Translations under genes and position numbers: made by a program
Source: Malacoraja senta
Lineage: Eukaryota
Length of the DNA: 64,000 nt
NCBI GenBank assembly: GCA_038087875.1
Contig: CM075989.1
Coordinates: forward strand, 15,936,001 to 16,000,000
Direction: 5' to 3'
The notes under the pieces: model-generated
The model's input: the letters and a program-made list of their open reading frames with translations, nothing else
The model's database searches: none
What the model was told of the DNA's origin: nothing
In this document: one piece after another, positions 1,482 to 58,484 of the stretch
How positions within the stretch are numbered: position 1 is the stretch's first letter
Layout of the letters: each line of letters begins with the position of its first letter

Positions 1482-4400
1482 TAATCTTAGCTATCTGTGT
1501 GTTGGAGATCCGACTTCAGAGAGCGCAGTCCAATTTCGACACACGAGGAATAGCTGGCGATTGTGTATTTGTAAACAACAACTGAACAGGTATCGGAGGA
1601 AAAAACCCAACATGTGTTGAAATCAAGATGCCCCGAAAGTTAATTCCATAACTGGAATTAAGTCTGTAACATCAATCGTTCTCGTTTAGAAAATAAAACC
1701 TCATATATATTGTCAAGGCAATCCTTGATCCCTGGAGGACATCAAATTATTTCCTCAAAATCGTACATACTTACAGCAGGCAGGAAGGTGTGGTTGGAAA
1801 ATTCGTGTTTGGCAGGTTGGCTGCAAGTGCATATGGACCTGTGAGTGGAAGATGCAGTGGGTCAGGAGCCTGGGCTTTCCAGTCCCCTCCGCCCACCGTG
1901 GACTGGGAGCATTTACTGGAGATGAGCTTAACATGGAGGCTTGGGTTCAATGGGAAATAATTACACTGAAGAGTCAGTGGATGATGCTCCAATCTGATTC
2001 AGCCACTTCAACTGGTTTGCCTCTTTATCTTTGCTCTTAATATCAATGGCCCGGGTCTTCCACAGAGCAGCCTGCCATTCATTTGCACGCATCACCTCTC
2101 ACTAAACCCGTACTTAGCTGATGGTGACCTTCATCTGATGGAGACCTCTTAGATCTTTCCTACAAAAGCAACACAGTGGTCAGCTTCCCTGTTTCCTGTC
2201 AGGTGTGGGAATACTGTGCAGCTCTTCTCCCAGGTCTAGACCTTGAGATGTATAAACCAAAATCTCCAAGTCTATGAAGTTGGAGATTTGCCATAGTTTG
2301 ACTGCCCAAAATGCAACAACTCGCACTTATCTGCATTAAAATCCATCAACCATTCCTCAGCTCACTTGCCCAGCTGATCACGATCTTGCTGTAATTTCTG
2401 ATAATGATAACCATTTTCGCTTTCTACGATACCACCCACTTCAGTGTCATCCGCAAACGTACTAATCATGCATCGTACATTTTCACCTAAATGTTCCCAT
2501 TTTCACCCTTATTATTCCCTCTTTATTGTCCTCGTGACAAGACCCACAGTCCCTATAGTTGTTAACCCTTTTCAATTATATTTATGTTTGATGATCTATT
2601 TTCTTCTTTTAAAATTTCCTTTAAATCAGATTTTATAACAAGGTCTTAGTTCCTCATCGTACTTTTCTACTACAGTTGCGAGAAATACTTTGGAATGGCG
2701 TATTATTTCTGCTGACTTAAAAGTGAGATTCAAATAGCGATAAAATAAATGGCATTTAGGATCAGCTGTGCAAAGTGTTATCCTGGAGTCCAAGATCATT
2801 ATTGGTGCAATCAAGGCATTGGATGTAACCAGAAGCTCATCTGGTTAACAAACTAAATTATGTTAGGCAGGAGACGCCAGTAAGCTCATTGGGTCAAGCA
2901 GCCTCTATTGGGGGGAAAGGCAATGTATATGGTGGAATAGATATATACAGAAGACTAAATATCTCTAGCTGATCAAATTAGTGTTAATTATAACTATGAA
3001 GTTAGATTTTCAGATTTTTTTCATCATGAGAACAACATTCAACGAATAATAAAAGACACAAGCTGCTGGAAAAAGGCACATAGTTCCTTGTTTCTACAAA
3101 GTGCTGGAGTGGCTCGGCAGGTCAGGCAGAATCTCAGGGCTCCATGTTTTCCTGAAATGCTGACTGTCCCTCTGAGCTACTCCAGCACTTTCTGTCCTTT
3201 TTTTTGTAAACCAGCATCTGCAGTTCCTTGTTTCCACATTCAACTAATAATGCTTTGCTTTTTTTCTTGAACATCGGCAACGTTTGGAATCTGGGTCTCT
3301 TATTTTCTCATGGTTAATGATTGCTACATGATCTGTATCATCAGATGCCTTACATCATCCAGATTTTGTTGATAAGGCATAGGGGAAAGCAAATAGGATG
3401 AGTTTGTAGGCAGATTAGTGAGGTGTATATTTATGGCAGAGTTATAATTGTGGGTGGTTTCAGGTTAAAAATAGACTGCAATGAAGAAAGCATAAGTGAT
3501 AAGTTATTTATGCAGTATAAATCAACCACCCATCAATCTGTTGCTGCTTCATCAAGGAGTTTTTGGCTTGTTTTGGGATACAAGAACAAAGGGGCCTCTG
3601 TAAAGTAGGAAACAGATAAGTAGACACCACAACAGAATTAGGTTTAGTGCAAGTACAGAAACAAAGAAATATTAACTGCGGACATGGCTCCTTTACTGAA
3701 AAAAAAACAATGCAAGTGCACATAAATGGGAGTGACTGTGCAAAGATGAAATCTTTGGAAAAAAATATCAAATTCATTAGCAGCGGGAATTGTTAAAGAA
3801 GTTACAATTCAAATATATGCCAAATAAGGAATTCAGGGTTTCTGGAAATTCATAAATTACTTACGACAATAGAAAATTGATCAAAAATATATTTTTGCTG
3901 TGCACCAAGGCTACAGTGAGATCAGAGACAAGAGGTCCCAGCAGGACCTACACTGTGGACTGTGAGCGGGTTATTGGAAAGTAAGAGCAACTCGATGACA
4001 CTGCTGACACTGCATCACCTTGATGATCACCTCGAACATGTTGGTGGTAAATCACTGGCTAAATTTGATCTCCTTTTATTAATGGGATATTCTGAGGACA
4101 CTTTTCACATTGTCGGGTAGATGGCAGTGTTGCAGCTCTGTTGGAACATGACGAAATCCAGAGCACGTCTCCATGACACAGGCAAGAGGGTATTGAGATA
4201 TTCAATGTGTCCAGTCATTTCCCAACATCTTCTTCTTGCGTATGGCTTGCACAGCCTAAAGTTGTAGGACAACTTGTTCTATTTGATCTTATTTGATTGT
4301 GCACGCCAGGTTGATTGCATTCGTTGAAACGCGACGGTTGCAATCTCCCACCCCATCAGTTGGGATGAATCGAATTGGCTGAAAGCCGACTTTTGTGATG

Positions 4401-9118: not shown

Positions 9119-9254
9119 CATGAATTCCACAAATTCAATAGATTTCTACATTTACACTTCAACCCAAAAAGCTTAAGTTAGAAATGGACTGTGAAAAAAA
9201 AAAATCACTGTTCTGACACAACACATTCTACCAACATGCCTGAATTCAGAGTGA

Positions 9255-10560
9255 AACATAGAAACATAGAAAATAGGTGCAGGGGTAGGGGTAGGCCATT
9301 CGGCCCTTTGAGCCTGCACCGCCATTCAATATGATCATGGCTGATCATCCAACTCAGTATCCTGTACCTGCCTTCTCTCCATACCCGCAAGGGCCACATC
9401 TAACTCTTAAATATAGCCAATGAACTGGCCTCAACTACCTTCTGTGGCAGTGAATTCCAGAGATTCACCACTCTCTGTGTGAAAAATGTTTTTCTCATCT
9501 CGGTCCTAAAAGATTTTCCCCTTATCTTAAACTGTGACCCCTTGTTCTGGACTTCCCCAACATCGGGAACAATCTTCCTGCATCTAGCCTGTCCAACCCC
9601 TTAAGAATTTTGTAAGTTTCTATAAGATCCCCCCTCAATCTTCTAAATTCTAGCGAGTACAAGCCAAGTCTATCCAGTCTTTCTTCATATGAAAGTCCTG
9701 ACATCCCAGGAATCAGTTTGGTGAACCTTCTCTGTACTCCCTCTATGGCAAGAATGTCTTACCTCAGATTAGGAGACCAAAACTGTACGCAATACTCCAG
9801 GTGTGGTCTCACCAAGACCCTGTACAACTGCAGTAGAACCTCCCTGCTCTTATACTCAAATCCTTTTGCTATGAATGCTAACATACCATTTGCTTTCTTC
9901 ACTGCCTGCTGCACCTGCATGCCTACTTTCAATGACTGGTGTACCACGACACCCAGGCCTCGTTACATCTCCCCTTTTCCTAATCGTCCACCATTCAGAT
10001 AATAGTCTACTTTCCTGTTTTTGCCACCAAAGTGGATAACCTCACATTTATCCACATTATACTGCATCTGCCATGCATTTGCCCACTCACCCAGCCTATC
10101 CAAGTCACCTTGCAGCCTCCTAGCATCCTCCTCACAGCTAACACTGCACCCCAGCTTCGTGTCATCCGCAAACTTGGAGATGTTGCATTCAATTCCCTCG
10201 TCCAAATCATTAATATATATTGTAAATAGCTGGGGTCCCAGCACTGAGCCTTGCGGTACCCCACTAGTCACTGCCTGCCATTCTGAAAAGGACCTGTTTA
10301 CTCCTACTCTTTGCTTCCTGTCTGCCAGCCAGTTCTCTATCCACATCAATACTGAACCCCCAATACCATGTGATTTAAGTTTGTATACTAATGTCTTATG
10401 TGGGACCTTGTCGAAAGCCTTCTGAAAGTCCAGATATAACACATCCACTGGTTCTCCCTTATCCACTCTACTAGTTACATCCTCGAAAAATTCTATAAGA
10501 TTCGTCAGACATGATTTACCTTTCATAAATCCATGCTGACTTTATCCAATGATTTCACCA
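9255..10560 (-). mobile_element. CR1-clade LINE, 5'-truncated
   Basis: RT motifs YLDFQKAFDKVPH, GVPQGSVLGP, KFADDTK and [13 protein letters not shown]; (TTTCTATG)n tail. Confidence 0.95.
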
Positions 10561-10829: not shown

Positions 10830-12792
10830 TAGCTGGGATCAAGTGTAACCCTGGAGGAGTTTCGGGAACTAAGGAGTAAACTAAAAAAGGAGATCAGAAG
10901 GGTAAAAAGGGGCCAGGAGATAGCTCTGGCAGGTAGCATTAAGGCCAATCCCAAAAGATTTAATAAGTACATAAGGGGCAAATGGATAACTAGAGAGAGA
11001 GTGGGACATCTCAGGAATCAAAGCTGTCACTGTGTGGAGCTACAGGAGATGGGCAAGGTCCTAAATGAGTATTTCTTCTCTGTATTTACCGAGGAGAAAG
11101 ACAGTAGGACGGAGGAAATTGGAGCAGTCACTGGAAGTGTCTTGAGAGCAGTCAGGGTTACTGTCGAAGAAGTACTGAGGGTACTGTCGTGTTTGAAGAT
11201 AACAAATCTCCAGGGCCTGATCAGATATATCCGAGGAAATTGCGGAAACTAGAGAGGAAATTGCGGGAGACTTGGTTGAAATTTACGAGTCGTCCTCAAA
11301 TACAGGAGAGGTGCTGGAAGACTGGAGGGTGGCAAATGTTGTGCCTCTTTTCAAGAAGGGCTGCAGGGAAAATTCTGGTGAGCTTAACATCTGTAGTTGG
11401 TAAGTTACTGGAGAGTATTCTGAGGGATAGGATATACAGGCATTTGGATGGGCAAGGGCTGATTAGGGACATTCAGCATGGTTTTGTACGTGGGAGGTCG
11501 TGTCTCATAAATCTGATGGCTTTTTTTGAAGACGTGGCCAAATAGGTTGATGAGGGCAGAGCTGTAGATGTTGTGTACATGGACTTCAGTAAGGCATTCA
11601 ACAAGGTTCTGCATGGTAGGCTGCTCTGGATTCAAGATTCAAGATTCAAGAGAGGTTACATCACATGGGATCCAAGGAGAGATAGCTGAATGGATAGCAA
11701 ATTGGCTCCATGGAAGGAAGCAGAGGGTGATGGTGGAAGGTTGCTTCTCAGACTGGAGGCCTGTGACTAGTGGTGTGCCTCAGGATTCGGTGCTGGGCCC
11801 GTTACTGTTTGTCACCTACATCAATGATTTGGATGAGAACATACAGGGCAAGATTAGTAAGTTTGTTGATGATACAAAAGTGAGTGGTTTTGCAGATAGT
11901 GAAGATGGTTGTGAACAATTGCAGCAGGATCTGGATCAATTTGCCATGTGGTCGGAGGAATGGATGATGGAATTTAATACAGAGAAGTGTGAGGTGTTGC
12001 ATTTTGGGATGTCGAACAAGGGCAGGACCTACACAATAAATGGTAGGCCTCTGGGTAGTGTTGTAGAGCGGAGGGATCTAGGAGTAAAGGTGCATGGTTC
12101 ATTGAAGGTCGAGTCGCAGGTAGATAAGGTGGTCAAAAAGGCTTTTGGCATTTTGGCTTTCATCAGTCAGAGTATTGAGTACAGAAGTTGGGAGGACATT
12201 TTGCGGTTGTATAAGAAGTTGGTGAGACAGCATTTAGAATATTGTGTTCAGTTCTGGGCACCATGTTATAGGAAAGATATTGTCAAGCTTGAAAGGGTTC
12301 AGAAAAGATTTACGAGGATGTTGCCAGGACTAGAGGGTGTGAGCTATAGGGAAAGGTTGAGTAGGCTGGGGCTCTATTCCATGGAGCGCAGGAGGATGAG
12401 GGGAGATCTTATAGAGGTGTACAAAATCATGAGAGGAATTGATTGGGTAGATGCACAGTCTTTTGCCCAGAGTAGGGGAATCGAGGACCAGAGGACATAG
12501 GTTTAAGGTGAAGGGGAAAAGATTTAATGGGAATCCGAGGGGTAACCTTTTCACACAAAGGGTGGTGGGTGTATGGAACAAGCTGCCAGATGAGGTAGTT
12601 GGGGCTGGGACTATCCCATTGTTTGAGAAACAGTTAGTCAGGTACATGGATAGGACAGATTTGGAGGGATATGGACCAAGTGCAGACAAGTGGGACTAGG
12701 GTAGCTGGGACACTGTTGGCCGGTGTGGGCGAGTTGGGCCAAAGGGCCTGTTTCCACACAGTATCACTCTATGACTCCCTAAGACTCTATGA
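10830..12792 (+). mobile_element. CR1-clade LINE, 5'-truncated
   Basis: KSPGPDQIYPR, QHGFV.GRSCL, GVPQDSVLGP, KFVDDTK and HLEYCVQFW; frameshifted; (ACTCTATG)n tail. Confidence 0.95.
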
Positions 12793-13153
12793 TAAGCAGC
12801 CACTACAGACGTGGCCCTGACTAATGTAACGGTTGTGTCCCGCAGAGCCTTGCAAAAGTCGGATGTTAGGTAACTCAGAAAGGAAGTGCCACTGTGCACA
12901 CGTAGATTTTCTACCCGAAGACTATGTGGGAGCTCTGACGCAGGGACCACGGGGAGCTCTGATGTGGAGATCATGGGCGAGCTCCGACACCAAGATGATG
13001 TGGTCATCAGTGGGCTTAAAGAATTGCCACAAAAGTGTGAATTTATGTGAGTCGCCTATTACGTAAGTCGGGGAATGCCTGAATAATAGAATGTAAATAG
13101 AAGCAGGAGTGACTTATTTGCCCCCTCATGCCTGCTCCACCATTCACTAAGAT

Positions 13154-13309
13154 AGACGCGAAAAGCTGGAGTAACTCAGCGGGGCAGGCAGCATTTCTGT
13201 AGAGAAGAAACGTCACCCATTCCTTTTCTCCAGAGATGCTGTTGTCCCGCTGAGTTACTCGAGCTTTTAGTGTCTATCTTCGATTTAAACCAACATCTGC
13301 AGTTCCTTC
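13154..13309. mobile_element. Fold-back Penelope-like pLTR mini-element inside a CR1 tail
   Basis: Inverted arms; 17-bp TSD CCACCATTCACTAAGAT at 13137-13153 and 13310-13326. Confidence 0.82.
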
Positions 13310-14504
13310 CCACCATTCACTAAGATCACAGCTGATTTACCTCGGCACTAACCTCGTACACTAACCCCATACCCCTTGCCTTCATACCAAAAATATCCAC
13401 TGTTGTTGTGTTGGCTTTGCCATTTCATGCAGATGCAACTTGGGAGAAACATGCTCACGCTTACTCATCAGCACCAAGGTTTGTTCTGTTATAGCGCGTA
13501 AATCTGCAGGAAAACAAAAGATGAAGCTCATACAAGTTTCGGTTTCTTCTTTTATATATTTTGCTGAGTAAGATATTCATCTACTTTTCCATCCTATTCC
13601 TAAGCCAGCTTCAGACAGGATGCATAAAAACGAGACAGAGAGTAACGGGCCATTTCTGGCTTCTAAACAGCACACATTATAAAAACACAGACAGCATTAA
13701 GTGATTTTAATGCTGGACAGGTGTTAAGGCATTTCCAATGCTTGCATTCAGGCAAAGAGATTCGGTTACCACTCAGGCAAGAACACTGAAAATCCCAGCA
13801 CCCAGCATTTTCACTTAACACTTGTATGAGATAAAACAAATGTTGATCCTTTTACATCCCAAACACAGTGTCTAATTTTGTCAGATAGGGGTATGGACCT
13901 GTTAAGTAAAACTACTGATAACATCAATGCTGGCAACTCTCAGATGTACACTGGCACAGTAACAATTCCTATTGTCACATAATGGTTTACACTCAACAAA
14001 ACAGATTGTGTCTCTGGTCAATCTGGTCAATACATTAGTGCAAAAATCAACAACCCTTCTCCAACCAGTTGAGAATATTGTTATTCGGAATTCTCTTGAG
14101 TCCTGTTAAAGCTTTTCCACACAATGCTAAGGATAGAATCTATTTCTACTGTAGAAGTTTTCTATTGGCTCAAAAACCCCTAAATCCTCACACGAATACC
14201 TCAATAGTTTTTCAACTTCTGTAAATCTGTAAATAGAAGAATGTCATTTAATTTCAGAGGTCAGATTAGTTAACGGGCACACACTCCTGAACTGATGTTT
14301 CTTCTGCAGTGTCTGTGGCCCATTTTCTTGTGCACAAAAGAAAAGAATTGCCATGGCAATGCATCATTCCACAGACATACTAGTCATTTATTGTAAGGTA
14401 CTGCATTCAGTTACACTTTCCACCTAAACATGCAACAGTTAGACTTTAAAATATAGAATTATATTCAACCTAACAGTAACATTTTTATTCTTGAAGTGAA
14501 TACA

Positions 14505-16165: not shown

Positions 16166-16286
16166 ATAATGTGAATAACTTTTAGTGCAAGATAAAGCCA
16201 GTAAAAAGCCAGGTGGGATGGTGATGATGAAATAGTGTTGTATTCCATGCACTAAAAGCAGGGCAAACCAAATCTGTCTAATTACC

Positions 16287-16782
16287 AGTGTGTAGGAAGG
16301 AACTACAAATGCTAGTTTATACCAAAGATAGATACAAAATGCTGGAGTAACTCAATGGATCAGGCAGCATCTCTGGACGAAAGGAATAGGTGACTCCTTC
16401 GGAGTCTGAAGAGGAGTTCCTACCCGAAACATTACCAATTCCTCGTCGCCAGAGATGCTGCCTGACCCGCTGAGTTACTCCAGTACTTTGTGTCTATCTT
16501 CAGTATAAATCAGCATCTGCAGTTCCTTTCTACACAATATGCTTAAGGAATCTGGCCCACTCCAAGTTGGAAGCCAGTGCTCCATTGCTTGGATTATTAA
16601 ATCTATGCTTTTGGATCCAAATGCCACAGGCAAAAATAATATGACAGAAGTGATTTTGGAACACATGCTGAAGGGAAGCCACCTTGAAGATGTGAAAAGC
16701 TGCAGACTTGTCCACCTAGTTGTTCTCACCTTGAAGTGGCCCATACCAGGGGTCCCCATGTTCCTCTAGTTTGTGTCGATCT
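16287..16782 (+). mobile_element. Fold-back Penelope-like insertion carrying a ~230-bp transduced tail
   Basis: Inverted plus direct pLTR, then about 230 bp highly similar to 39218-39449. 14-bp TSD TCTG(T/C)CTAATTACC at 16273-16286 and 16783-16796. Confidence 0.8.
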
Positions 16783-19134
16783 TCTGCCTAATTACCGCCC
16801 GTCCGCCCCCAATCAACCCACCCTCAGTTATCAGCCAAGGGCTGGAAGGTGTGGTCAACAAAGCTATTCATGTCTTTTATAACAATAACATGCTCACCAA
16901 CGCTTGCTTGGATTCCACAAGCATCATAGTTTCTGATTGCAATACAGCCCGTTCCAAACAGGGACAAGCATCTAAGTTCCAGTGGAAAGCTGGGAATGGC
17001 TGCCTTTGAGACCCTTGTGGAATTGTTGTCAACAAGAAATAGGGGGAATTTACCATTGACTGGAATAATCTCAGCCTCAGCCGCAGGTGGTCTTGGTCCC
17101 AGGCCCAAACCTCTCTAGCAACTCTCACAACTTCCCAGTGTGTGTATATTTGCTGATACCTGTTCATTGTTAGTTCTATTCACAACTCTTCATGCAAAGA
17201 AGCAATCTGTGTTTGTACGGATCAAAACTTAGCAAATACACTTGCCTGGTGTGAGGTGAAAGAAATTCTTTAATGGTGATATGCATGTGTTGGACAATGA
17301 CCATTTTCAGCAGCAGAGAGTCTAACCGTCATTCCATTGTCTGGACAACCTGCATTAACATTCTGGAGCTGACCGATTACATTTACCATTGAGTCTTTAT
17401 GTTGATATATGTCCCTAAATCTAAATGTTGTTTAATCAAGATATGTACAGTACGTGTTGGTCATTCAGACGATCATTATTGCATTGTTCGCATCTAAATG
17501 CAGTTCAAACAAATTCTTGATAATTTTGCTCAAAAATAACAACATTATTATTGTTCATTTTAAGTGTTTTATGCAATAACATGTTCACATAATGGCTGTA
17601 TTTACAGCAGTACACAACTCCCTCGGTTATGAATGACCTGATTTACAAAAACCAACTTACACAATTACACAAATGCTTCCAGACATTTTTAAAAGTACTT
17701 CTCAAACTAATAATAATAATAAAATGTTTCATTTTATTGATGAATTAGATACAGGCTATATATTCCATGTTTAATTATGTTACGGTGATTATTCAATGAA
17801 ATGAAATAATTATAGCAAGTGTATCTAAGTCATGGTTTCATGGTCAGTTTATTGTCACATGTACCAATTAACGTACGGTATAATTCCACAGTAACCCATA
17901 CCTAGAGCAATAAGACATGGGTTACTGTGGAAAATGGATGCTTCTGACTTAAGGAGAAACCAGCTTGTGTGCAGTTGGCAAGAATGGAACCCAGACATAA
18001 CCTGGAGTTACGTGTGCCTTGTTTCATATATTATAGACCCAACACAGCAGAATAACATAACAGTGGTAGCAATCTTTTAATTAAACTAGGGTTGAAATGT
18101 AGGATTTACAGTATGTCTGACCGATTCTACTTTGAGAAAACATACTGGCACATTAGTGACAATGTTAAGAGGTCTACACATGCAGAGCCATGTTCAATGA
18201 GTTTGAAGCTTTGCCGCCGGACATGGAGCATATGACAACTTCATGAATATCAGCAACATGGAGTTGAGATCCTGATTGCTGCCAGGATGTCCCAAGGAAC
18301 CAGATTGGAGATGGTTTCCTCACCTAACCAGGATGTGAGTGGAACTGGGTATCTTACAAGGCTCACTGATATCAGTGAATCAATGATAGATAAAAATGCT
18401 GGTGAAACTCAACGGGTGAGGCAGCATCTATGGAGCGATGGAATAGGTGACGTTTCGGGTCTGTTTCCACGCAGGATTGCGTACATCCTGAGGCATTGCT
18501 TACAGCAGCATGGTGATATGCACCCCTATACAGAGAGGAAGATAAATCGTGCTACCCACACTAAAAGGGTGCTGTTCCCATGACATGGGACTTATTTCAC
18601 ACCTTGAAGCCTCTAGTAAGCGTCAGCTATCTCAGACTTCCAAGCTCAGAGGTTACCCCCAAAAGCAGTACCAGGTGAGGTGCCCTTGGATCCATCCTGC
18701 ACTGGCACCAAGACTACATTGGCTACAAGAACCACACACATTTGTCTCAGCAGTTTTCCCCACAGTTATGGTGGCATGAAAGTTGTTGTGAGCACAGACA
18801 TTATTCTTGGCAAGATTTGGAAGATTCTCTCAACATTTGCCGAATGGGGTGTATTCGTCGCTGTCTGAAGATGCGAGTGTGCAGCTATGGAGGGGTAGTC
18901 ATTTCATTATCAGTCTGATTTTTCCTGATCCGTTTCTTGCTCATCTATTTATTTTCCAACAGAGGGTTTGCCAAGGGAATATCCAATGGTGCAACAGCAA
19001 GAATTGATTATGAAATGGCACCAGACTTGAAGAGAACCTAAATATGCCTCAACTAAAAAAATCTAACTTGTAGAATTTAATTAGTTTAGGACTAAGGATT
19101 AGGTTAACATTGTGATGAATGTTTCATCACATCG

Positions 19135-19552: not shown

Positions 19553-21084
19553 ATGATTAACATCGCTGAAAGTGAAAAGCTCAAGGGAACCAAGAAGAAT
19601 GTATTTGATACTTTTCGAGAAGGTGACGTACTATTATTATTGAGGATAGTGGTACAATTCTTTCCGTTGGTTGCTTATATCCCGCCACCATTTGATATGA
19701 CAAGACAGCAGAGATTGCCTTGACCTGTTGCGGGATGATTTGGCTCCATCTAGAACATGTTGCTTTTGCATGTTAGCATGCTTAAGTTGCAGCTTCACCA
19801 GGTTACATCCGTTTCTTAGGCATGCTTCTGTCCTATGGCAGCGAACCTCAGCTGCTCAAATGGCTTAACGTTGATGGAGGAGTGAGAAAGAGATCAGACT
19901 ATGAGGTTGTGGACTATGAGGGGTCCCCTTATGTTTCATGAATGCCCATTTTGGACTACAGGATTCTGAGCTTAAACTATCTCAGCCCTGCTTCCTACAG
20001 TCATGGACAATGCCATTAAGAACACATGTGGTAGGAAGATTGGCAGTGGGTATCAGCCAAGAACTTTTCAGCAGACACCGAGGCTTGCTGGAACTGCGGT
20101 TGCGAACCACTCTAACTCGGCTTCCCATTGCCAAATTAACCTTTCTGCCCTCAGTCAGACTGAGGCCACACACAAACTGGAAATGTGTGTATCCTACAAC
20201 CTGACGGTACACACAATGAATTCTGCAATTTCAAGTAAAACCTTCTGACCCCCTCTCTCTTCTTCTCTCTCTCTCTCACTCCCCCCCGCCCCCCCCCCGT
20301 CACTGTTCCAATTTGTCTAGGTTGGGCAGGCGGGAAGGTTCTCCCTGCAGGCAGACAGGACACCCACTGAAAGGGGAAGGGGGCTCTGGCCGAGGTGAGG
20401 TGGGTCACCCTGTATCCTCTGTCTTTGCTCCTTTTGCCACCACCATCTCCCCCTTCCTGCTGCTCTTCCCTTCACTAGCGCTGCCTCCTCTCCCGTTGCC
20501 AAGCTAACCTTTCTGTCATCAGTCAGACTGAGGCCACACACAAACTGGAAACGTGTGTATCCTACAACGCAACCTGAACTGCTGACGAGGCCACCCAGCC
20601 CTAGAGGAGGCCGCACTTCGTGAGGCAGGACTGCTCTGTCCAATATAGGTCATCACCCTATCTCCTCCTATTGGCCCTGTACCTCAGTTTCAGAGAATGA
20701 CAATGGCCTCCAATTCTGTTCTGTGCAAAACATTGGCTCCTCACCCCCATGGTAGAAGCTTCTTCAGTTTCAATGCAATGTAATCTAACCCATCTCACTC
20801 CCCACACATTCCTCAATATCCCACCCAATCTAATCCCAGTTTTCATCCTCCCTCCGAACGATTGGAGAGTTTTGCAGGTAGTTCCTCCACCTTACTACCA
20901 ATCCCAGTTTCCCCTTTCCCGCCACTGTAGCTGAAACTCACTCCCCTCAATGCCCCCTCCGGGATCCCACTCTTTGTTGCAGCCAATTCTGGAGGGCTGG
21001 GGAGCTGTGGGACTGTCATAGAACATTGGACAGAACAAGAACCCACGATGATTACATGCGAGATCAATACAATGAATGGTACGT

Positions 21085-21147: not shown

Positions 21148-21169
21148 ACAATGAATGGTACGTTGGGAC

Positions 21170-21812
21170 TTTCAGAGCAAAAGGATTTGAGTATAGGAGC
21201 AGGGAGGTTCTACTGCAGTTGTACAGGGTCTTGGTGAGACCACACCTGGAGTATTGCGTACAGTTTTGGTCTCCAAATCTGAGGAAGGACATTATTGCCA
21301 TAGAGGGAGTGCAGAGAAGGTTCGCCAGACTGATTCCTGGGATGTCATGACTGTCTTATGAAGAAAGACTGGATAGACTTGGTTTATACTCTCTAGAATT
21401 TAGGAGATTGAGAGGGGATCTTATAGAAACTTACAAAATTCTTAAGGGGTTGGACAGCCTAGATGCAGGAAGATTGCTCCCGATGTTGGGGAAGTCCAGG
21501 ACAAGGGGTCACAGCTTAAGGATAAGGGGGAAATCCTTTAAAACCGAGATGAGAAGAACTTTTTTCACACAGAGAGTGGTGAATCTCTGGAACTCTCTGC
21601 CACAGAGGGTAGTCGAGGCCAGTTCATTGGCTATATTTAAGAGGGAGCTAGATGTGGCCCTTGTGGCTAAAGGGATCAGAGGGTATGGAGAGAAGGCAGG
21701 TACGGGATACTGAGTTGGATGATCAGCCATGATCATATTGAATGGCGGTGCAGGCTCGAAGGGCCGAATGGCCTACTCCTGCACCTAATTTCTATGTTTC
21801 TATGTTTCTATG
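21170..21812 (+). mobile_element. CR1-clade LINE 3' fragment
   Basis: [19 protein letters not shown] and RGDLIETYKI; same subfamily as 9255-10560; (TTTCTATG)n tail. Confidence 0.93.
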
Positions 21813-21921: not shown

Positions 21922-22235
21922 CCAGTCTGAAGAAGAGTCTCGACCCGAAACGCCACCTATTCCTTTTCTCCAGAGATGCTGTGTGACCCGCTGAGTTACT
22001 CCAGCTTTTTTTGGGGTCTATCTTCACTATAAGGACTCAGCTTTGAATGGATGCAGACCATAGATAAATAGACGTGTAGGAAGGAACTGCAGATAATGGT
22101 TTACACCGAAGATAGACACATAATACTGGAGTAACTCAGCGGGTCAGTCAGCATCTCTGGAGAGAAGGAATAGGTGGCGTTTCGGGGCGAGACCCTTCTT
22201 CAGACTGAGGGTCAGGGGAAAGGGGAAACTAGATG
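21922..22235. mobile_element. Two opposed Penelope-like pLTR copies
   Basis: A + copy (about 21922-22025) and a - copy (about 22073-22235), each with a degenerate hammerhead core. Confidence 0.7.
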
Positions 22236-23495: not shown

Positions 23496-23600
23496 ATGGA
23501 ACCTCTGGTCCAGAGGAAGACTTTGGTGGATAAATGCAAACTGAAGAACAGCTGGATAAAAGAAGGGCTCGCCGAATTTCTGGGGACATTTATTCTAATT
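23496..23600 (+). CDS. aqp9: Aquaglyceroporin (AQP9-like) coding exon 1
   Basis: Strong Kozak context GCCATGG. Encodes MEPLVQRKTLVDKCKLKNSWIKEGLAEFLGTFILI, including the MIP TM1 motif AEFLGTF. GTGAGT donor at 23601, phase 0. Confidence 0.92.
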
Positions 23601-25770: not shown

Positions 25771-25897
25771 CTGTTTGGTTGTGGTTCTATTGCCCAGTCA
25801 GTGCTGAGCAGAGGAGCGAGTGGCAATATGTTGACATCTTCTATTGGCTTTCCATTTGGAGTTACCATCGGTGTTTATGCGACAATAGGGGTGTCAG
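25771..25897 (+). CDS. aqp9: Aquaglyceroporin (AQP9-like) coding exon 2
   Basis: TTTTGCAG acceptor. 127 nt encoding LFGCGSIAQSVLSRGASGNMLTSSIGFPFGVTIGVYATIGVS(G). GTACGT donor. In frame with exon 1; too short to appear in the ORF track. Confidence 0.93.
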
Positions 25898-26645
25898 GTA
25901 CGTGGAGATATGATTCTGAAAGTGGAAGATTTAAGAGATTTTAAATGTTGAACCAGAAAGTGAGTACCCGGTTTTAACTAACCCAAGTGTACTATTACAT
26001 TATGGCACTAATGCTTCTTTGACTGTTAACTTTAATAAAGGTAGCTGGGATATTTCTTCACTATTTGGACCCAGCCTTCAACTGCAAGTAGATCCAGGAA
26101 ACATACTGTCCCTGGCCAGTCAACTCTTCATAGTTTTCAATTAATAAACAATGAGACTCAAACAATCTTTAATATTTTAATCATAAAATAAGATGTAAAT
26201 CTCGATTACCTCTTTGGAATCTTTAAGTAATTCCAAATTGAATCTGCATTTGTAATATTAATTTTTAAACGTTTTATGCAATTTGAATGAAAAGTTTTAA
26301 AAAATTACAGATGTTCAAAGTCCAAAATCAGAACAGAAAATGCAGGAAACAATTGAAAGTAGAGGCAGCGTCTGTTTCAGGTCAAAAATCTGATGAAGCA
26401 ATTTTTAATTCATTTTCTGATCTAAGTGCCATTTTCATCATCATAGTTGCCCATGTGCTGCTCTGAAGAGTACTCTTATACTTTTTCTTGTGAGAGTTTG
26501 TTAAGTTGCAGTTATCAGGAGAGCGACACTATATTGTACTCTCTGCAAGACAACTTGTACCTCTGTACACTTGGTGTGTAATATTCGCTTCAAAGCAAAA
26601 TGCAGCACGATAGTTTAATATTCATTCCATTCTCAACATATTCTA

Positions 26646-26869
26646 ACTTAAGAAAGACACAAAAAGCTGGAGTAACTCAGCGGGACAGGCAGCATCTCTG
26701 GAGAGAAGGAATGGATGGCGTTTCGGGTTGCGACCCTTCTTCAGAAGAAGAGTCTCGACCCGAGACATCACCCATTCCTTCTCTCCAGAGATGCTGCCTG
26801 TCCCGCTAAGTCAGTCTAGCTTTTTGTGTCTATCTTTGGTTTAAACCAGCATCTGCAGTTCCTTCCTAC
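26646..26869. mobile_element. Fold-back Penelope-like pLTR mini-element
   Basis: Inverted arms; 10-bp TSD ACATATTCTA at 26636-26645 and 26870-26879. Confidence 0.78.
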
Positions 26870-29284
26870 ACATATTCTATCCTAAACCTAATCCAACAAG
26901 CTGAGAGGTCTTGTTCTTTGCAACTATGTCCCTATCCATACTAACAAAATTCATAAAATAATTTATCATCTAAAATATACTTCATGGGTTGAGTACCATG
27001 CTATATCAATTGTTTATTGCTTGAAGCATGGAGTAGCAATGATGTCTCCTATCTATTATTGTGTCCAGCAGTAAAGTCAAGGGAATGGCAGAGCAGGGAG
27101 TTAAGGAGATTGAGGGTGAGCTGGAAGCAGGTAGGGCGATATTGAGGACATTGTTTTAATATTGGTGAAGGGGAGCTCAAGAATGGACACAAGTAAATCG
27201 ACTCTCATTGCAGGACTTCAAAGTTGGTGCAATGGGATCAGATCATGTTGCCCTGGGAGTGCCCAACAGTGGATGAGCCCTGGGACATCATGGACCACGT
27301 TCCCCAGTAATGGAACAAATGGAGAATGATCCTGTGTGGCGTCAGCCTCGTTATGGTTACTCATGACAAAAGATATTTGGACATATTTTCAGAGTGGTGC
27401 AAAACAACTCAGAAATATTCCTTTCTGTATTTCACTCGTGAAGAAACAGATTTCCTAATTGTTAAACACTGAAGTAGATAGCTATATGCAATCAAATTAC
27501 CAGATAGTAATATTTCCCATCAGAAACGCATCAGTTATAAAACTCAACACCTCCACACCCATCAGATAAGTTATACAACGTAAAACCCACAAAAATTATC
27601 ACTAATGAGTCACCTATCATGTGTATAAATACTCTTGCAGAGGCTGGATGCTGTAATAGCTTGGCTCTCTGTTCATTTACCTCTGGAGTTTATATTCTAC
27701 CTTTGAAGGTGGGATGAAAGTCTCTTCAGTCTATTGGTTGGAAGGCTCTTAAATGTTTACTGATCTTTATATATCCAAGTTGAAATAAGCAACAGATATC
27801 ATCAGAGTCACCTGAGTCAAAAGTACATTTTATTGCCTAATAATTAAAAATAACAAACGCTCTGTGTTACCAGACTTTAGTTGATGCCTTTTCTATGTAA
27901 AATAATTTTTTCATAACTTTTGTGTTACATGAATGTAGATCTTTGTTCTCTTGCTTTCCTTCACCAGAGCAAGTTTACCATCGGGTTCTGACTTCGCCCC
28001 ATGCCTGGGAATTAACTAGCCAAAAGATTAACTTATCTACCTGACCAGATCCCTTTAGAAATATTTTCAAACATTCCTCTTTCAGGAATCTTCAGTCCTT
28101 GAAGAATGAATGTTTAATGGGAGCTCCTGGGATGAGCGAACAATTCTGCTGTTGTTTCTGTCTATCCTGAGTAACAGCATTAAAGTACAGCCGCAATCTT
28201 ATGCATTCTGCAACTGCCTAAGGTTATGGACTTTTAAAAAAAACCTGTGCAAGCTCTCTTTGTTCATGAAACCTAAAAATCAATGGTATTTCTCTTCCCA
28301 AATCCATTTGGTGGAAACATTTCCCTCTAGTTCCATGGGTTCTGAGGTGGCTGTTGACACCAATGCAGGGACTGTAGTCTCGGGTAAGGTACGGTCCTTC
28401 AATGAGAAGGGGGTAGATCATTTATGAGATTTTGTGTGTCTTCCACTATGTACACAGGACATCCTGGTGCTTCTAATGCATGGCTTCAAGGTTCTCAATA
28501 AGACCTTGGAAGCTCCTTTGCCATTTTTTAGCAGTCATGGACCAGGGAATGCCAGCAGTTAGCAGGGATGCCTTAAAGATGTCAAAGACACCATTCAGTC
28601 AAGGTGTCTTTGGGTACAACCTTGAATCTTTTCCCTTTTCCACATATTATCAAGTTTGGAAAAGGGAGTCTGTTTTGGGAATTGAATGTTGGACATTCAA
28701 ACAATGTGGCCTGCCCAACATAGTCCCTCAATATCAGTGATACTTGTCCGGGAGCGGACACTGATATTGGTTTGTTTATCCTTGAATTTGAAAGCTTTTG
28801 CATGGACAATGTTAGTGCTAATTTTCAGTACCATGAGATGGTGCTTAAGTTAGTCCAAGTCTCAGATAGAGGAGGATAACTGGTGGCCCATGTCTCAAGC
28901 ATGGTCTAAGACCTGGATCTTTAAATACCTTTTTCTCAATTGACCAAATGCAGCACTAGCTCTACTGACTCATTGTTGTCCTTTCATTATTTAACAGTAT
29001 CTGATAAATAGAGCCAGGATTTTGCCATAAATGCCATAAGTGCCAAGATAATGCCCTTTTCACGATCGAGTGCCTAAATCAGCCTTTTTTTTGCCGTTTT
29101 GCTATGTCATGCTATTTTCTCTAGTTGTACCGTGATTACAATGATGTTTTCTATGTTAACACATTAATATTAATATTATTATGAACATATTAACATAGTA
29201 TAACTTACAAGAAAATTTCCACCATGTCGGTCGTTCATTCGTTCGTGCCTCTGCCCTCTGGTTCAGTCTTCTCCAAGATCTATT

Positions 29285-29575
29285 TAAGAAAGAACTGCAG
29301 ATGCTGGAAAAATCAAAGGTAGACAAAAAATGCTGGAGAAACTCAGCGGGTGAGGCAGCATCTATGGAGAGAAGGAATAGGCGACGTTTCGAGTCGACAC
29401 CCTTCTTCAGACTGATGTGGGGGGAGGGTGGGGGGGAAGAAAGGAAGATGCAGAGACAGTTGGACTAGAAGCAGAGCTGGGAAGGGGGAGAGGAGGAGGG
29501 CGAAGACAAGGGCTATCTAAAATTAGAGAAGTCAATGTTGATACCGCTGGGGTGCAGACTACACAAGCAAAATAC
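29285..29575 (-). mobile_element. Penelope-like element 3' fragment nested in the hAT
   Basis: Minus-strand GIY-YIG C-terminal-like remnant (FCLCSLHPSGINIDFSNFR), a pyrimidine tract, and a pLTR with hammerhead core at 29383-29410. Confidence 0.75.
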
Positions 29576-29579
29576 CCAA

Positions 29580-31710
29580 GCTTGTCTCCTCACTACATTT
29601 ACTGCTGGCTGCAGTCGCAAATCGGAGTTTTCGAGTGATCTGTGCAAGGCATTCATTGATGCTGGAATTCCACTGTGGAAATTGGAAAACAAAACTCTCA
29701 GAGTTTTTTTAGAGAAATACACAGTGGAGCATATACTAAGCGAGTCGTCATTACGGAAAAATCATGTTGACAGCAACTTCAACAAAATTAGAGATGAAGT
29801 TGCATGCAACAAAATATGGATCTCAATAGACGAGACAAATGATGCCATGGGGGATATATTGCCAATGTGGTCATCGGTACACTGGAGGCAGGCCAACCAT
29901 CAAAGGAGTATTTGTTGACATGGGAAGTATTGGAGAAGTCAAACAACTCAACTATTGCTCAGTTGTTTACAACTTCACTTGTTGTACTTTGACCAGAAGG
30001 TCTAAAACACAAGAATGTTCTTCTGTTTGTGACTGATGCAGCTCCCTACATGAAAAAAGCTGCTTGTGCCCTTAAAGTTTCATTCTCCAAAATGTTGCAT
30101 TTGACATGCTTAGCTCAAGGACTTCATAGAATTGCCAAGCACATACGTAGCTTGTTTCCAAATGTCGATCGCCTAGTTTCCAATGTCAAGAAAATCTTCC
30201 TCAAAGCACCGTCACGTGTGCAGTTGTTCAAGGAAATGGCACCCGAGATTCCACTACCTCCTCAGCCCATTTTGACTAGGTGGGGTACATGGGTCTCTGC
30301 TGTACTCTACAATGCTGCACATTTTCAAAAGATAAAATAAATCGCCAACTGTTTTGAAGAAGAAGAATCTGCTGCAGTCAGGATTGTCAGTGAAATCATG
30401 CAGAAAAAGTCCGTCCACCACGATCTTGTGTTTATTGCTTCCAATTTTGCAAACTTCCCACAAGTTATCATTTCCCTTGAGCAACGTGGCGAAACATTAG
30501 TGAATAACTTGCAGGTTTTCAACAAAGTAACTAACGATATTTGTAAAATTCCTGGCGATGTAGGTAAAGACATACAAGGAAAATGTGAGAGAATGATTTT
30601 AGTGAACAAAGATCTTGAAGAAATACAAAACATAGCTAAAGTTCTCAAAAGTAGTTGTAATGCACAAGATATCAACATGAATATACAAGATACATTTATT
30701 TGTCACATGTACCAATTGTCACATGTACCAATGTGTGGTCGCCATACAGCCATACGAACAATAAAGAGCACAGATCACGATAGTTTTTAAACACAGACAT
30801 CCCCACACAGCGAGATCAAAGTTTCCCACTGTGAGGGAAGGCTCCAAAATGCAGTCATCCTCCTCTGTTGTCCTCCCGTGGTAGGGGGACTCCCGAACCC
30901 CCGCTGTCCCCGGTACGGGCGGCCCGATGTTCAGGCCCGCTTGCCGGGATAATGGAAGTCCGACGTCGGGACTGGGGGACATCCTCAGCGGCTTGGACAT
31001 CCGAATTGGCCACTTCCTACGTCGGCTCCCGACGTCCACAGGCCGCGCTGGGTGGAGACTCAACGCTGGTGGCCCTCGGCAAAGGGCCCCAGGACTCCGC
31101 GATGTTGGTCAGCGCCGGCCGTGCTGGGAGCTCTAAGAAACGCAGCTCCGCGATATTGGTCAGCGCCGGCCGTGCTGGGAGCTCTAAGAACCGCAGCTCC
31201 GCGATGTTGAAGCAACAGGCCCAGCTTCATCGGCGATCCAGGTAAGGCATCGCCCGCTCCGAGATGTATCCAGCACAGCACCGCCACTGCTGAAGCTTTG
31301 GTTCGGTCCCCGGCTGCGCCAATCCAGGTGGTAGGCCGCGAGGAGGGGGGCGAGGACGCGACTCGGTGAATAGTCGCCAGGAAGTGACTGGGAAACGGTT
31401 TCCCCCTTACCCTACCCCCCTCCCCCACATAGAAAAGCTAGAGAAACTAAAGAAACATACTTTTAAAACGAGCTAAAAAGGAAAAAAAGGAAAAACAAAC
31501 AGACTGTAGGCAGAGGCTGCCTTCAACGCGGCGCCCCACATATAGAGTCTGTAGCTTGTTTCAGGTATGCACCAGTGACATCAGCTGAGGTAGAAAGAAG
31601 TTTTTCACAACTGAAGCATATTCTGTCTGACAGACGGCATAGTTTAACACCTGATAATTTGAAAATAATGCTCGTAATTATGTGTGACCAGGCAGCTTTG
31701 GTCATTTAAT
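29580..31710 (+). pseudogene. hAT transposase remnant, interrupted at 30686-31539
   Basis: ORF pieces at 29535-29918, 30029-30340 and 30398-30685. The frame resumes at 31545 as ESVACFRYAPVTSAEVERSFSQLKHILSDRRHSLTPDNLKIMLVIMC (dimerisation domain). Confidence 0.88.
30686..31539 (-). mobile_element. GC-rich non-autonomous retroelement with LINE-like tail, nested in the hAT transposase
   Basis: ATATA on both sides (30681-30685, 31540-31544); removing the insert restores the transposase frame DINMNI|ESVACFRYAP. Minus-strand 3' end has AATAAA. 51-bp tandem repeat at 31095-31210. Confidence 0.8.
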
Positions 31711-39006: not shown

Positions 39007-39063
39007 ATGATGGGGTCGCTGGAAAGCTGCATTGGAGGCATCAGGTTGACAATATGCTTAAGG

Positions 39064-39217
39064 TGATATTTTGGGTCGGGTGTCGAGTCTGAAGAAGGGT
39101 CCTGACCCGAAACGTCACCCATCCTTTTTCGCCAGAGATGTTGACTGACCCGCTGAGTTAATCCAGCACTTTATGTCTATCTTCAGTATAAACCTGCATC
39201 TGCAGTTCCTTTCTACG
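39064..39217 (+). mobile_element. Penelope-like pLTR insertion (putative donor of the transduction)
   Basis: 14-bp TSD CA(A/G)TATGCTTAAGG at 39050-39063 and 39218-39231; intact hammerhead core. Confidence 0.78.
39089..39116 (+). ncRNA. Minimal hammerhead ribozyme motif (Penelope-like pLTR)
   Basis: CTGAAGAA-GGGTC(CT)GACCC-GAAACGTC; core intact. Confidence 0.68.
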
Positions 39218-39483
39218 CAGTATGCTTAAGGAATCTGGCATACTCCAAGTTGGAAGCCAGTGCTCCATTGCTTGGATTATTAAATCTATGCATTTGGATC
39301 CAAATGCCACAGGCACAAATAATATGGCAGGTGATTTTTGGAACACATGCTGAAGGGAAGCCACCTTGAAGATGTGAAAAGCTGCAGACTTGTCCACCTA
39401 GTTGTTCTCACCTTAATGTGGCCCATACAAGGGGTCCCCATGTTCCTCTGTGCTCCAACCCTAAGCCCAAACCAAAGAGCTGT

Positions 39484-41902: not shown

Positions 41903-42030
41903 ATAGGAAGGAAGTGCAGATACTGGTTTATACCAAAGATAGATACAAAATGCTGGAGTAACTCAACAGGTCACGCAGCATCTCTGGAGAAAAGGAATAG
42001 GTGACGTTTCCGGTTGAGACCCTTCTTCAG
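41903..42030 (-). mobile_element. Penelope-like pLTR copy
   Basis: Same pLTR consensus; hammerhead core at 42003-42030 with a mutated stem II. Confidence 0.7.
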
Positions 42031-42519
42031 ATGAATGATCTGTGGACGAACTCTGATGCATGATGAGAAGGTGACATTGACAAGAAAGACAACCTGATCT
42101 CATAGAGCTCAGCACTGGTTCCAGAAGGTGCACCAGCCCAAAAGAAAGATGAGGTGTTGTCCCTGAAGCTTACGTTGAACCTTGGTATAACAGTGCAGAA
42201 GGCCAACCATGGATAGGACAGAGGGGAGGCAGGATGGACAATTGAAGAATCTTTCCTGAAGCAGTACAACCATTATAGATTGTATAATTCTATTGTATAA
42301 CCATAATATAATGAGCACCTCTGCATTTGCAAATACTTGTCCATAAAAATGGAACTAGCAGTCATATTAATGAAGTGAAAATGAATTTAGCACAAAATAT
42401 AAACATTATGTTCAATGGTTGTTAGTGACTTTAAAAACGGGATTGTTTGTCAGAACACACTAGGCAGTATTTCTCAGTATTTGATACATTTGTTAATATA
42501 CGTTAATATATATATATAT

Positions 42520-43579: not shown

Positions 43580-44920
43580 ATGTTTATATTGAAGGTTATA
43601 GAAGGATATAGAACAAAGCTTAATGCAAATTCTGATTTACCCATGCAACATGTTCCAAAAAAGCAGTTTGACTTCAGTATCACTGAACAATTGGAAGTTC
43701 AGTTGGAACTTGCAAGGTTATGTAATAAAGGTGTAATTGCTAAGGCAGTTTACCAAAGCCATTAGTTTGTGTCCAATATCTTTCCCAGACCAAGCAAGGA
43801 TGGGGGATGCAGAATTATACTGGACCTGAATAGTCTTAACCCTTTTGTAGGGTATAGACATTTTAAGATGGAAATGTTTGTGAAGGAGATCTTAAAGAAA
43901 CGGATTCAGTGTCTGTTCATTTGCAGGATAGAAGATTTAAAATTCAGCTGGATGGGGCAATTATTGCAATACCATGCATTGCCTAATAGTTTGTCTTCAG
44001 CTCCTAGAGGGATTACAAAGTGGTTAAAACCTATTCTAGGCATGATGAGAAGTCAAGGACATGTGCTCATGGCTTAACTAGATAATATCTTGATTGTAGA
44101 ACAATCAAAGGAAACAGCTGAAGTGGCAGTTGGGAAAAAAAAAAACAAGGAATAAAAACACACAATTTTTAAATTGGGTTTCATAAGCTATCCAGAGAAA
44201 TCTAAATTTATACCTGTGACACAAATTGACTAGTTGGGTTCACAATAGACTTAATCAACATGATTGTGATCTTGCCCAGGCAAAAAAGGGTAGAGCTAAT
44301 TAAGAGCTGTATCAAGTTAATTGCTGACACACAGCCTTCAATTAGCCAGGTGACAGGTCTGCTGTGGTAATTGCTGGCAGCATTTCCAGCAGTTCAATAT
44401 GGCCACTTTATTATCTACAATTACAAAGGTCAAAGGAACAAGCATTGAGGATACATTGGGGTTATTATAACAGACCTATGCTTCTATCAATAGAGGCTGT
44501 TGCTGATGTACAATGGTAGATTCAGCATGTGTCCACTAGTAGTTCCAAAGTGTTATTGGACCAAGCTTCCATGATTTGCAGACAGATGTCAGAGCACTTG
44601 GGTAGGGTGCTACTGATACAAGATCCAGCTGTGGAGACAGATGAACATTGCTTCTGCAAACATGGGGATAACCAAGAGTATTTTATGGACTCAAGGCTTA
44701 TGGCACAAACTAAACTACTTTGCATGTGCAGTGCAAAATAGACAGCACTATAGCAGTTGCTGATATGAATCACATGGGTGGAATAAAATCGTTATCATGT
44801 GACAGGTTGGCAAATACAATTGGACCTGGAGTAGGGATAGAGAGATTTGGATTGGAGCTATCTATCTGCCAGGTAAACTTAATGTAGTACCAGATGGCAG
44901 GTCACGAAAATTACGTGATA
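43580..44920 (+). pseudogene. DIRS reverse transcriptase / RNase H remnant
   Basis: SNIFPRPSKDGGCRIILDLNSLN..FKME; LPNSLSSAPR; the YLDD box has decayed to *LDN near 44075; RNase H-like IDSTIAVADMNHMGG and YLPGKLNVVPD. Many stops and frameshifts. Confidence 0.85.
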
Positions 44921-44931
44921 ATACAGACTGG

Positions 44932-45290
44932 ATGTTCAACCAGGATGTGTTCAAGAACATAGTACTTCTATATCGAAGGCCAAAATATGTTTCATGGGAA
45001 CCAGATTCAGGGGCAGTGGCAATTGATGCTTTTTCACTAAATTGGGATGATATGTTTGTGTACATTTTCCCACCATTCTGCCTCATGGTGTTTGAGAAAA
45101 TCAAGCAGGATGCCGCTTCAGGGGTTTAGGTGATACCAAATTGCCCGATTCAACCATGGTTCCTTTTCAGGTTACAGATAGCGATCCAACCTCCTTTTGA
45201 TGATTCCAAACAGTAGGAATTTGCTGGAGCATCCAGGAACGCGTTAAGTTCATCTGTTATGTGATCGTATTGATCTGTTAATTTGCAGGT
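44932..45290 (+). pseudogene. DIRS methyltransferase-like domain remnant
   Basis: AIDAFSLNWDDMFVYIFPPFCL..KIKQD matches the DAF..W...Y.FPP motif of the Dam-like domain found after RNase H in DIRS elements. Confidence 0.7.
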
Positions 45291-45298
45291 TTGTAAGA

Positions 45299-46254
45299 AT
45301 GCCTTACATTGGTCGAGGACTTTCTAGGCCAACGGTGGATATACTCACTGCAGCCTGGAGAAAGAGTACTCAAAAGCAGTATTTGACTTATGTAAAAAAA
45401 AAAATTAAAAAATGGGAACAATATTGTGTTCAAAAGAATATGCAATATGAAATTGTAATTATTGAAAATGTGTTAGAGGTTTATCTACACTTTATTATGA
45501 TGAGGGTCATAGCTATAGTGCTATCAATACAGCTAGAAGTGCTTTGTCGGCATATCTTGTAATAGGTACACGGACACAAAGTATAGGATCTCACCCTCTC
45601 ATATCTAGGTTGATGAAAGGAATCTTTAATTCCAAAACGCCTAAGCCTAGGTATATGGTAATCTACGATGTAAGCGTTGTTCTTAACATGCTTCGTCATT
45701 GGGTCCCTGTCACGTCTATAACTTTGCTGAATTGGCTATGCTAATGGCATTGGTGTCAGTACAGAGAGTGCAGACTTTGCAAAAACTTCAGATCGAGAGA
45801 ATGGAAGTGAATACAGAGAATGTTCTGTTTTATATTTCTGACCTGCTCAAACAAAGCAGGCCAGGTGTGACAGGATTTAAGATTGTGTTCTCAGCATATC
45901 CTACAGCTCCATGTTTATGTGTAAGGACACATTTGTTACATTACATTGAAGCCACAAGGGCTTTAAGACAAGAAGAAACAGGATTATTTGTCAGTTACAA
46001 GAAGCCAACATAAAAGAGTGGCAGTTCAGACTATCTCAAGGTGGTTAAAGCAAGAGTTGGTTCAGGCAGGAATTAACACTTATGTGTTTACATCTCATCC
46101 CACTAGTGCAGTAGCAACATCCGCGGTCAGGGCGATGGACGTTCCCATCGACCATATATTAAAAGCCGCAGGTTGGAAAAATGAACTTGTGTTTCAGCAA
46201 TACTACCATCGGGCGATTGCCAACTCAATATTGAGTGCTGTTGCTATTGTTTAA
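45299..46254 (+). pseudogene. DIRS tyrosine recombinase remnant
   Basis: AWRKSTQKQY; LALVSVQRVQTLQKL-like box I; TISRWLK; H-S-T-R box decayed to HPTS; ILKAAGW..F..YY. Split by frameshifts over four ORF-track entries. Confidence 0.88.
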
Positions 46255-58273: not shown

Positions 58274-58411
58274 GGGCACACCTGAATCCCGCAATTTCGC
58301 TGTCAATGTGTGTACTGGGGCGGCTTCAGTGGTTGAAACTTCCCATCTACTGCACTGCTCAGCTCATAGGAGCTTTTTTTGGTTCCGCAGCAGTTTTTGG
58401 CCTTTATTATG
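58274..58411 (+). CDS. aqp9: Aquaglyceroporin (AQP9-like) coding exon 3, containing the first NPA
   Basis: CTAAC branch-like motif and TCTTTCAG acceptor. 138 nt encoding (G)[51 protein letters not shown] donor. Phase matches exon 2. Confidence 0.95.
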
Positions 58412-58484
58412 GTAAGGCTGTTGTTTTTATATTTGCATTGAAGTAATGAAAACTGCTGCTACTAAATGTTTGTATACTTTATAG

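Follow-up and report, generated by a model that had tools for sequence, protein, structure and literature searches.

Aqp9 intron DNA copied into a Penelope-type insertion 23 kb away in Malacoraja senta

In Malacoraja senta, a Penelope-type insertion upstream of the aqp9 gene contains a piece of DNA that is also found in an intron of that gene, next to another copy of the element's terminal repeat (pLTR). How did intron DNA come to lie inside such an insertion? A preliminary description of the locus had proposed a Penelope-mediated 3' transduction. We analyzed the window, a stretch of 64,000 nucleotides (contig CM075989.1, 15,936,001 to 16,000,000); all positions below are those of the window, and papers are cited for the portions of their text that were accessible.

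Donor, daughter and copy number

The near-identity of about 230 bp after both pLTRs was borne out: 16535-16767 and 39218-39449 are 94.9% identical over 234 columns, and no second long match to 16535-16767 exists within the 64-kb window. With the pLTR included, 16402-16767 is homologous to 39085-39449. This homology is bounded on either side, and the sequence left of the 39-kb element is missing at 16 kb. As described earlier, the two loci carry distinct 14-bp TSDs. Both the 16-kb pair (16273-16286 and 16783-16796) and the 39-kb pair (39050-39063 and 39218-39231) are identical at 13 of 14 positions, a score reached by none of 150 random window pairs. The donor TSD encloses the pLTR alone, so the flank is native at 39 kb, and the proposed direction from a 39-kb donor to a 16-kb daughter was thus upheld. 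Furthermore, 16535-16548, which is the 16-kb copy of the donor right TSD, matches the donor left TSD at 14/14, indicating that the single donor TSD mismatch arose later, at 39 kb. Similarity running past the TSDs, as in a segmental duplication, was absent. The duplication is real and directional, with about 230 bases copied 23 kb away.

All 14 protein matches to the gene were named aquaporin-9, the top one being a skate protein at 93%. Mapping of the aqp9 exons by tblastn and splice sites placed the donor in intron 2 in sense orientation, confirming what had been stated; the daughter lies upstream of the gene, 6.7 kb from the ATG. The gene and the donor locus are laid out as follows:

about 23496-23600, 25771-25897, 58274-58411 and 58466-58627, plus strand: aqp9 coding exons 1-4, from protein matches, tblastn and splice sites
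39050..39063, no strand: donor left TSD, 13/14 to 39218-39231
39062..39080, minus strand: short inverted pLTR piece, predicted to pair across the donor hammerhead core in a hairpin
39085..39217, plus strand: donor pLTR with tail, with a minimal-hammerhead core at 39089-39116, from alignment, end positions and motif
39218..39231, no strand: donor right TSD, 13/14 to 39050-39063
39232..39449, plus strand: native intron DNA, source of the 16-kb copy, from alignment to 16 kb

The 16-kb insertion reads from left to right:

16273..16286, no strand: left TSD, 13/14 identical to 16783-16796
16287..16394, minus strand: inverted pLTR arm, truncated 5' and running to the tail end, with an origin other than the donor (81/104 to the donor arm)
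16392..16406, no strand: head-to-head junction hairpin, 6 bp with a 3-base loop
16402..16445, plus strand: forward pLTR, 5' part, unlike the donor (11/45 columns differ) and with a damaged hammerhead core
16446..16534, plus strand: donor-derived 3' part of the pLTR with a 36-base tail (8/89 columns differ; five shared non-majority variants)
16535..16548, plus strand: copied donor right TSD, 14/14 to 39050-39063 and 13/14 to 39218-39231
16549..16767, plus strand: captured host DNA (aqp9 intron 2), low-copy and non-coding, from alignment, depth and exon map
16768..16782, plus strand: pLTR remnant at the tail-less family end, the true right end of the insertion (12/13 match)
16783..16796, no strand: right TSD, 13/14 identical to 16273-16286

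The preliminary description was right that the 16-kb TSD encloses an inverted pLTR, a pLTR and the flank, but it had overlooked the 15 extra bases at 16768-16782. The closest arm to the inverted arm at 16287-16394 is 41904-42031. The captured 230 bp are non-coding, and nothing suggests a function for the segment.

Contigs from 4 of 23 runs, one run each from organisms A, B, C and H, were aligned to 16170-17300. Organism A is the same organism as that of the window, and its run X1 may be the assembly's own sample. The alignment covered the 16-kb site only and misses copies below 88% identity. Flank depth was 1-5x single copy in all four runs versus 10^5-10^7 on the pLTR arms, with two depth bins of organism B (run X7) reaching about 5x. 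The segment is thus not a high-copy repeat, an objection that had been raised beforehand. Contigs of organism A span both 16-kb junctions with 0-1 differences, and in organisms B and H single contigs lead from the flank across the right junction into downstream DNA. In organism C, a contig passes the flank end, follows the remnant as far as 16781 and continues into an additional insertion. The left junction is also visible in organism H and is not among the B and C contigs shown. In organism B, pLTR plus flank was additionally covered by two contigs of full depth, as would be expected from the two loci. The composite, present in all three relatives (B, C and H) at an orthologous divergence of 5-6% (36/720, 29/579 and 25/416), is therefore older than the divergence of these species. 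Neither an empty 16-kb site nor a capture-free element was seen in B, C or H; all of them post-date the capture, so that none is an outgroup to the event.

Two other features of these contigs were recorded. The extra insertion in organism C measures at least about 400 bases and lies at the remnant/TSD boundary (16776-16781), with a 6-base overlap. Organism B has a double-depth contig over 16634-16751 with a 9-base deletion not found in A, C and H, for which gene conversion between both copies or contig collapse are possible explanations. In organism A, letters common to both copies likewise hint at gene conversion. We make no claim of it: collapsed contigs and a CpG at 16727-16728 can account for these hints, and 9 substitutions in 231 fit the 5-6% orthologous divergence.

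The pLTR family and the ends of its insertions

The arms in the window share their architecture with Penelope-like elements (PLE): a terminal repeat with the core of a minimal type I hammerhead, an inverted 5'-truncated pLTR beside a direct pLTR within a TSD, and a 30-40-base tail on a single end. An inverted arm and a tail are standard in PLE insertions (PMC8557442). Scanning the window for hammerhead cores returned eight, all in pLTR arms and including 39089-39116; none was present in 16402-16445. Rfam gave no window match at gathering level and no hammerhead at E values up to 10 around the donor, so the assignment rests on the motif description in PMC4209133. The donor hammerhead had been called intact. 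Its catalytic core indeed is, but helix I has merely 2 bp, compared with 1-4 bp across the copies in the window. Additionally, fold prediction places the core within a hairpin at 39062-39117 (-30.8 kcal/mol for 39060-39140, with 2 of 200 shuffles as good), which would bury it. A single minimal hammerhead motif did not cleave (PMC4209133), and the one PLE studied in vitro could insert without cleavage (PMC11167929). The donor hammerhead marks the family and gives no support to an RNA route.

A link between the pLTR family and a PLE RT or GIY-YIG endonuclease was sought in Pfam, in Atlas and in two protein searches, which returned no match, and the pLTR motifs were not found in metagenome and viral contigs. 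The window holds remnants of one ORF end at 29260-29580 (minus strand), 50162-50743, 59115-59284, 62473-63183 (minus strand) and 20123-20240. These are followed by pyrimidine-rich DNA and, in three cases, then by a pLTR arm, and probably represent the 3' end of the parent elements. The remnants upstream of arms (29500 on the minus strand, 50200, and 63100 on the minus strand, with a related piece at 59115) presumably resemble the C terminus of a GIY-YIG protein.

The window contains 12 head-to-head pairs, with clear TSDs at 4 of the 11 others (scores of 10-17) and at the 16-kb insert. Arms stop mainly at two places 36 bases apart, near ruler positions 97 and 133. When a tailed arm was defined by a ruler end of 118 or more, leaving aside solo arms and one tail-to-tail pair, the other head-to-head pairs (n = 11) had one tailed arm in 8 cases, none in 3 and two in 0. 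The tail reflects two internal RT start sites (PMC11167929).

Against this rule, the 16-kb insertion looks irregular, as both of its large arms are tailed. The exception is lifted by the 13-15 pLTR bases (within 16768-16782) that separate the copied flank from the right TSD. Bases 16770-16782 match a pLTR arm at 12 of 13 positions, a closeness seen in 30 of 58,158 unmasked 13-mers of the background, and the letters of the remnant are identical in organism C. The remnant terminates where tail-less arms terminate, supplying the missing tail-less end and restoring the one-tail rule. Normal element ends are thus present at either side of the insertion, and the host DNA lies inside a palindromic insertion, not at its 3' end.

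Other palindromic pLTR insertions, at 431-638, 3082-3238, 13137-13326 and 26636-26885, have TSDs of 13-17 bp that overlap the pLTR at one or both junctions, which suggests priming by short target-template pairing. At 21924-22206, 1.3 kb upstream of the aqp9 ATG, two pLTR arms stand tail to tail around a short spacer, unlike the usual head-to-head arrangement.

Mechanism of the capture

The forward pLTR at 16 kb is apparently a mosaic, with its 3' 89 bases donor-derived and its 5' 44 bases not, as judged from the distribution of differences. Daughter and donor differ at 11 of 45 columns in 16402-16445, at 8 of 89 in 16446-16534 and at 12 of 234 in the flank, and only 24 of 2000 permutations gave a divergence step as strong as that at 16446. 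Non-majority variants common to both copies number five in the 3' part and one in the 5' part. The daughter carries the family-majority letter at 16440 and 16442, positions where the donor letter is rare, but most 5'-part differences are private to the daughter. The shared variants put forward earlier held in part. T at 16529 is unique to the pair (0 of 9 other arms), but the variants then quoted occur in other arms too (G at 16448 in 3/23, A at 16502 in 4/14, A at 16505 in 3/13). Trees built from 14 arms for the pLTR 3' part and from 15 arms for the 5' part, with shorter arms excluded, did not resolve the 16/39 pair as sisters. Quicker change near the palindrome center could produce a similar divergence step, as could subsequent conversion from a different copy. 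Hammerhead cleavage was considered as its cause and rejected: the cut site maps to 16433/16434, and five of the differences are 3' of the cut.

We give about an even chance to the reading that a resident palindrome broke and was filled in from a nearby pLTR copy, with synthesis running on into the flank of that copy. A palindromic Penelope-type insertion would first have stood at 16 kb, with a TSD, an inverted tailed arm, a forward tail-less arm and a TSD, a layout deduced from the surviving ends. A later break within the forward arm would have been repaired at the DNA level. Near 16446/39129, the left end would have annealed to the homologous pLTR at a distance of 23 kb, and synthesis would have covered about 320 bases, through the donor tail, its TSD and 218 intron bases, before rejoining the resident arm at its final 13-15 bases through a weak microhomology. 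We infer the break, this order of events and the DNA template from several features of the locus. Both 16-kb ends are typical of the family, with the remnant restoring the one-tail rule; the divergence steps at 16446, with majority letters at 16440 and 16442; and there is no A-tract, and PLE RT is reported to start inside the pLTR (PMC11167929). Moreover, a single copy, a donor in cis, breakpoints inside the element with its ends and TSD intact, and junction microhomology, for which there is a weak candidate here, are hallmarks of gap filling as described in PMC8277862. Other observations count against repair of a gap. The element without capture that it predicts was found in 0 of 3 relatives, all of which carry the composite; the return microhomology is weak (6/8, equaled at 70 of 1760 downstream positions); the donor has the orientation that an RNA route needs, sense to aqp9; and multi-template insertions look normal for this pLTR family. 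The proximity of donor and daughter is partly an ascertainment effect of the 64-kb window.

An aqp9 intronic RNA, the template suggested in the preliminary description, could still have served, but only with template jumps. In this tentative alternative, which we consider a serious competitor although we would not bet on it, the composite is the product of a single retrotransposition. A PLE enzyme would nick the 16-kb site, and RT would start at the tail-less pLTR site and make about 15 bases. It would then jump onto aqp9 intron RNA at 39449, copy the flank and the donor pLTR, and finish on, or be joined to, another pLTR RNA, while the inverted arm would come from a second RNA primed on the opposite strand. 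The sense orientation of the donor in intron 2, the canonical pLTR ends within one TSD, the mixed origin of the arms of single insertions and the occurrence of the composite in 3/3 relatives with no intermediate all agree with this, and nascent aqp9 RNA could account for the short distance, although locality then requires an additional assumption. The predicted hairpin of the donor RNA is strong and ends about 12 bases from the apparent switch, but an identical hairpin would form in single-stranded DNA. Published work likewise speaks on both sides. The enzyme PAc cleaves and extends both strands and is a predicted dimer (PMC11167929), and in Adineta host DNA lies between direct pLTRs along with an inverted pLTR and a TSD (PMC3846280); however, the accessible literature offered no comparable jump, and the non-donor 5' part demands two of them.

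A foreign inverted arm might be taken as a sign of two events. This argument does not hold, since the two arms of one insertion were mutually nearest in only 1 of 10 other head-to-head pairs. Arms of single insertions thus generally differ, and the foreign arm does not separate the mechanisms. That arms are seldom nearest would fit the use of two different RNAs in each insertion, or an old age that has blurred the signal.

A more specific version, which we regard as doubtful, is that a Penelope enzyme sits on a solo pLTR of a nascent host pre-mRNA and nicks DNA close by; RT then starts at its usual internal site, jumps downstream on this RNA and so captures flank locally. If true, an RT that is expected to skip 3' flanks would nonetheless capture them. 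Because solo pLTRs are very numerous in the introns of skates and rays, short local duplications could then arise by this route generally in cartilaginous fish.

The plain, LINE-like 3' transduction favored by the preliminary description fared poorly, and we consider it improbable. RT would start from the 3' end of a read-through donor RNA, and the 15 bases would be filler. A pLTR and its downstream flank were indeed copied in sense inside a new TSD, and a faint product primed at the RNA 3' end has been obtained in vitro (PMC11167929). However, in the same study RT starts mostly at internal sites within the pLTR region and largely ignores added 3' sequence. Here, the flank does not directly precede the TSD, since the pLTR remnant stands between them and ends at the family initiation site; the 16-kb insert has no A-tract, its sole poly(A)-like hexamer lying 170 bases upstream of the break; and the daughter pLTR does not resemble the donor over its first 44 bases. 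Finally, it is very improbable that no capture took place and that the locus reflects a pLTR-attached repeat, a segmental duplication, an assembly error or a reversed direction: the identity threshold, the 16-kb-only alignment and the two deeper X7 bins leave it some room, but the low flank depth in 4/4 runs, the organism A contigs across both junctions, the homology bounded at both ends with the donor left flank missing at 16 kb, and the donor TSD around the pLTR alone argue against it.

Known systems and neighboring elements

Host capture between pLTRs is already known from a rotifer. In Adineta vaga, host DNA has been described with two direct pLTRs around it, together with one inverted pLTR and a TSD, and solo pLTRs there have captured non-coding DNA between them (PMC3846280); PLE transduction is restated in PMC6431247. 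Our composite is similar to the Adineta case in its order of inverted pLTR, direct pLTR, host DNA, pLTR end and one TSD, devoid of element coding sequence. It differs in that the 3' pLTR is just 13-15 bases long, the host is a vertebrate and the donor is identified 23 kb away, its own TSD having been copied along. With Pack-TIRs (PMC8277862) it shares the single copy, the cis donor, the internal breakpoints, the kept ends and TSD, and, as a weak candidate, a junction microhomology. However, the element that received the DNA here is the remnant of a retroelement, one junction falls within shared pLTR homology of about 90 bases and not in a microhomology, 23 kb exceeds the under-15-kb majority, and an outgroup element without capture was not found among B, C and H. 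As in L1-type 3' transduction (PMC6431247), an element end and its downstream flank lie inside a new TSD, but poly(A) is lacking and the insert ends in element sequence, not in flank. The head-to-head arms, preferred 3' ends 36 bases apart, junction palindrome, TSDs of 13-17 bp and hammerhead core with a bulged base and a palindromic tetramer are in agreement with PLE architecture (PMC8557442, PMC4209133 and PMC11167929). Differences are the helix I of only 1-4 bp in window copies and that the Pfam, Atlas and protein searches tied no RT or endonuclease gene to the pLTR family.

The literature search, which left most subscription papers and supplements outside its reach, found no vertebrate PLE capture with a traced donor, and the accessible text of PMC9977147 and of bioRxiv 10.64898/2026.07.22.740005 holds nothing on capture. 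The present case is resolved to the base: its donor is traced, both TSDs are known and its right end is marked, a combination missing from the PLE captures in the accessible literature. It shows that what looks like 3' transduction by a Penelope remnant can be a capture within the insertion. The order of host DNA, short pLTR end and TSD is a simple signature for a genome-wide comparison of RT template jumps with palindromes as repair hotspots.

Other elements are present around the two loci. A perfect 78-bp inverted repeat (46501-46578 and 46730-46807) surrounds about 150 bases just after remnants at 43766-46013 that look like a DIRS-type element. In aqp9 intron 2, two adjoining ORFs at 29560-30790 are presumably the remnant of a DNA transposase. 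Fragments of CR1-type LINEs are found at 9253-10558, 10833-12774, 21154-21808 and 56679-58037; the last of these includes a Pfam RVT_1 domain at 56679-57683 and ends about 240 bases before aqp9 exon 3.
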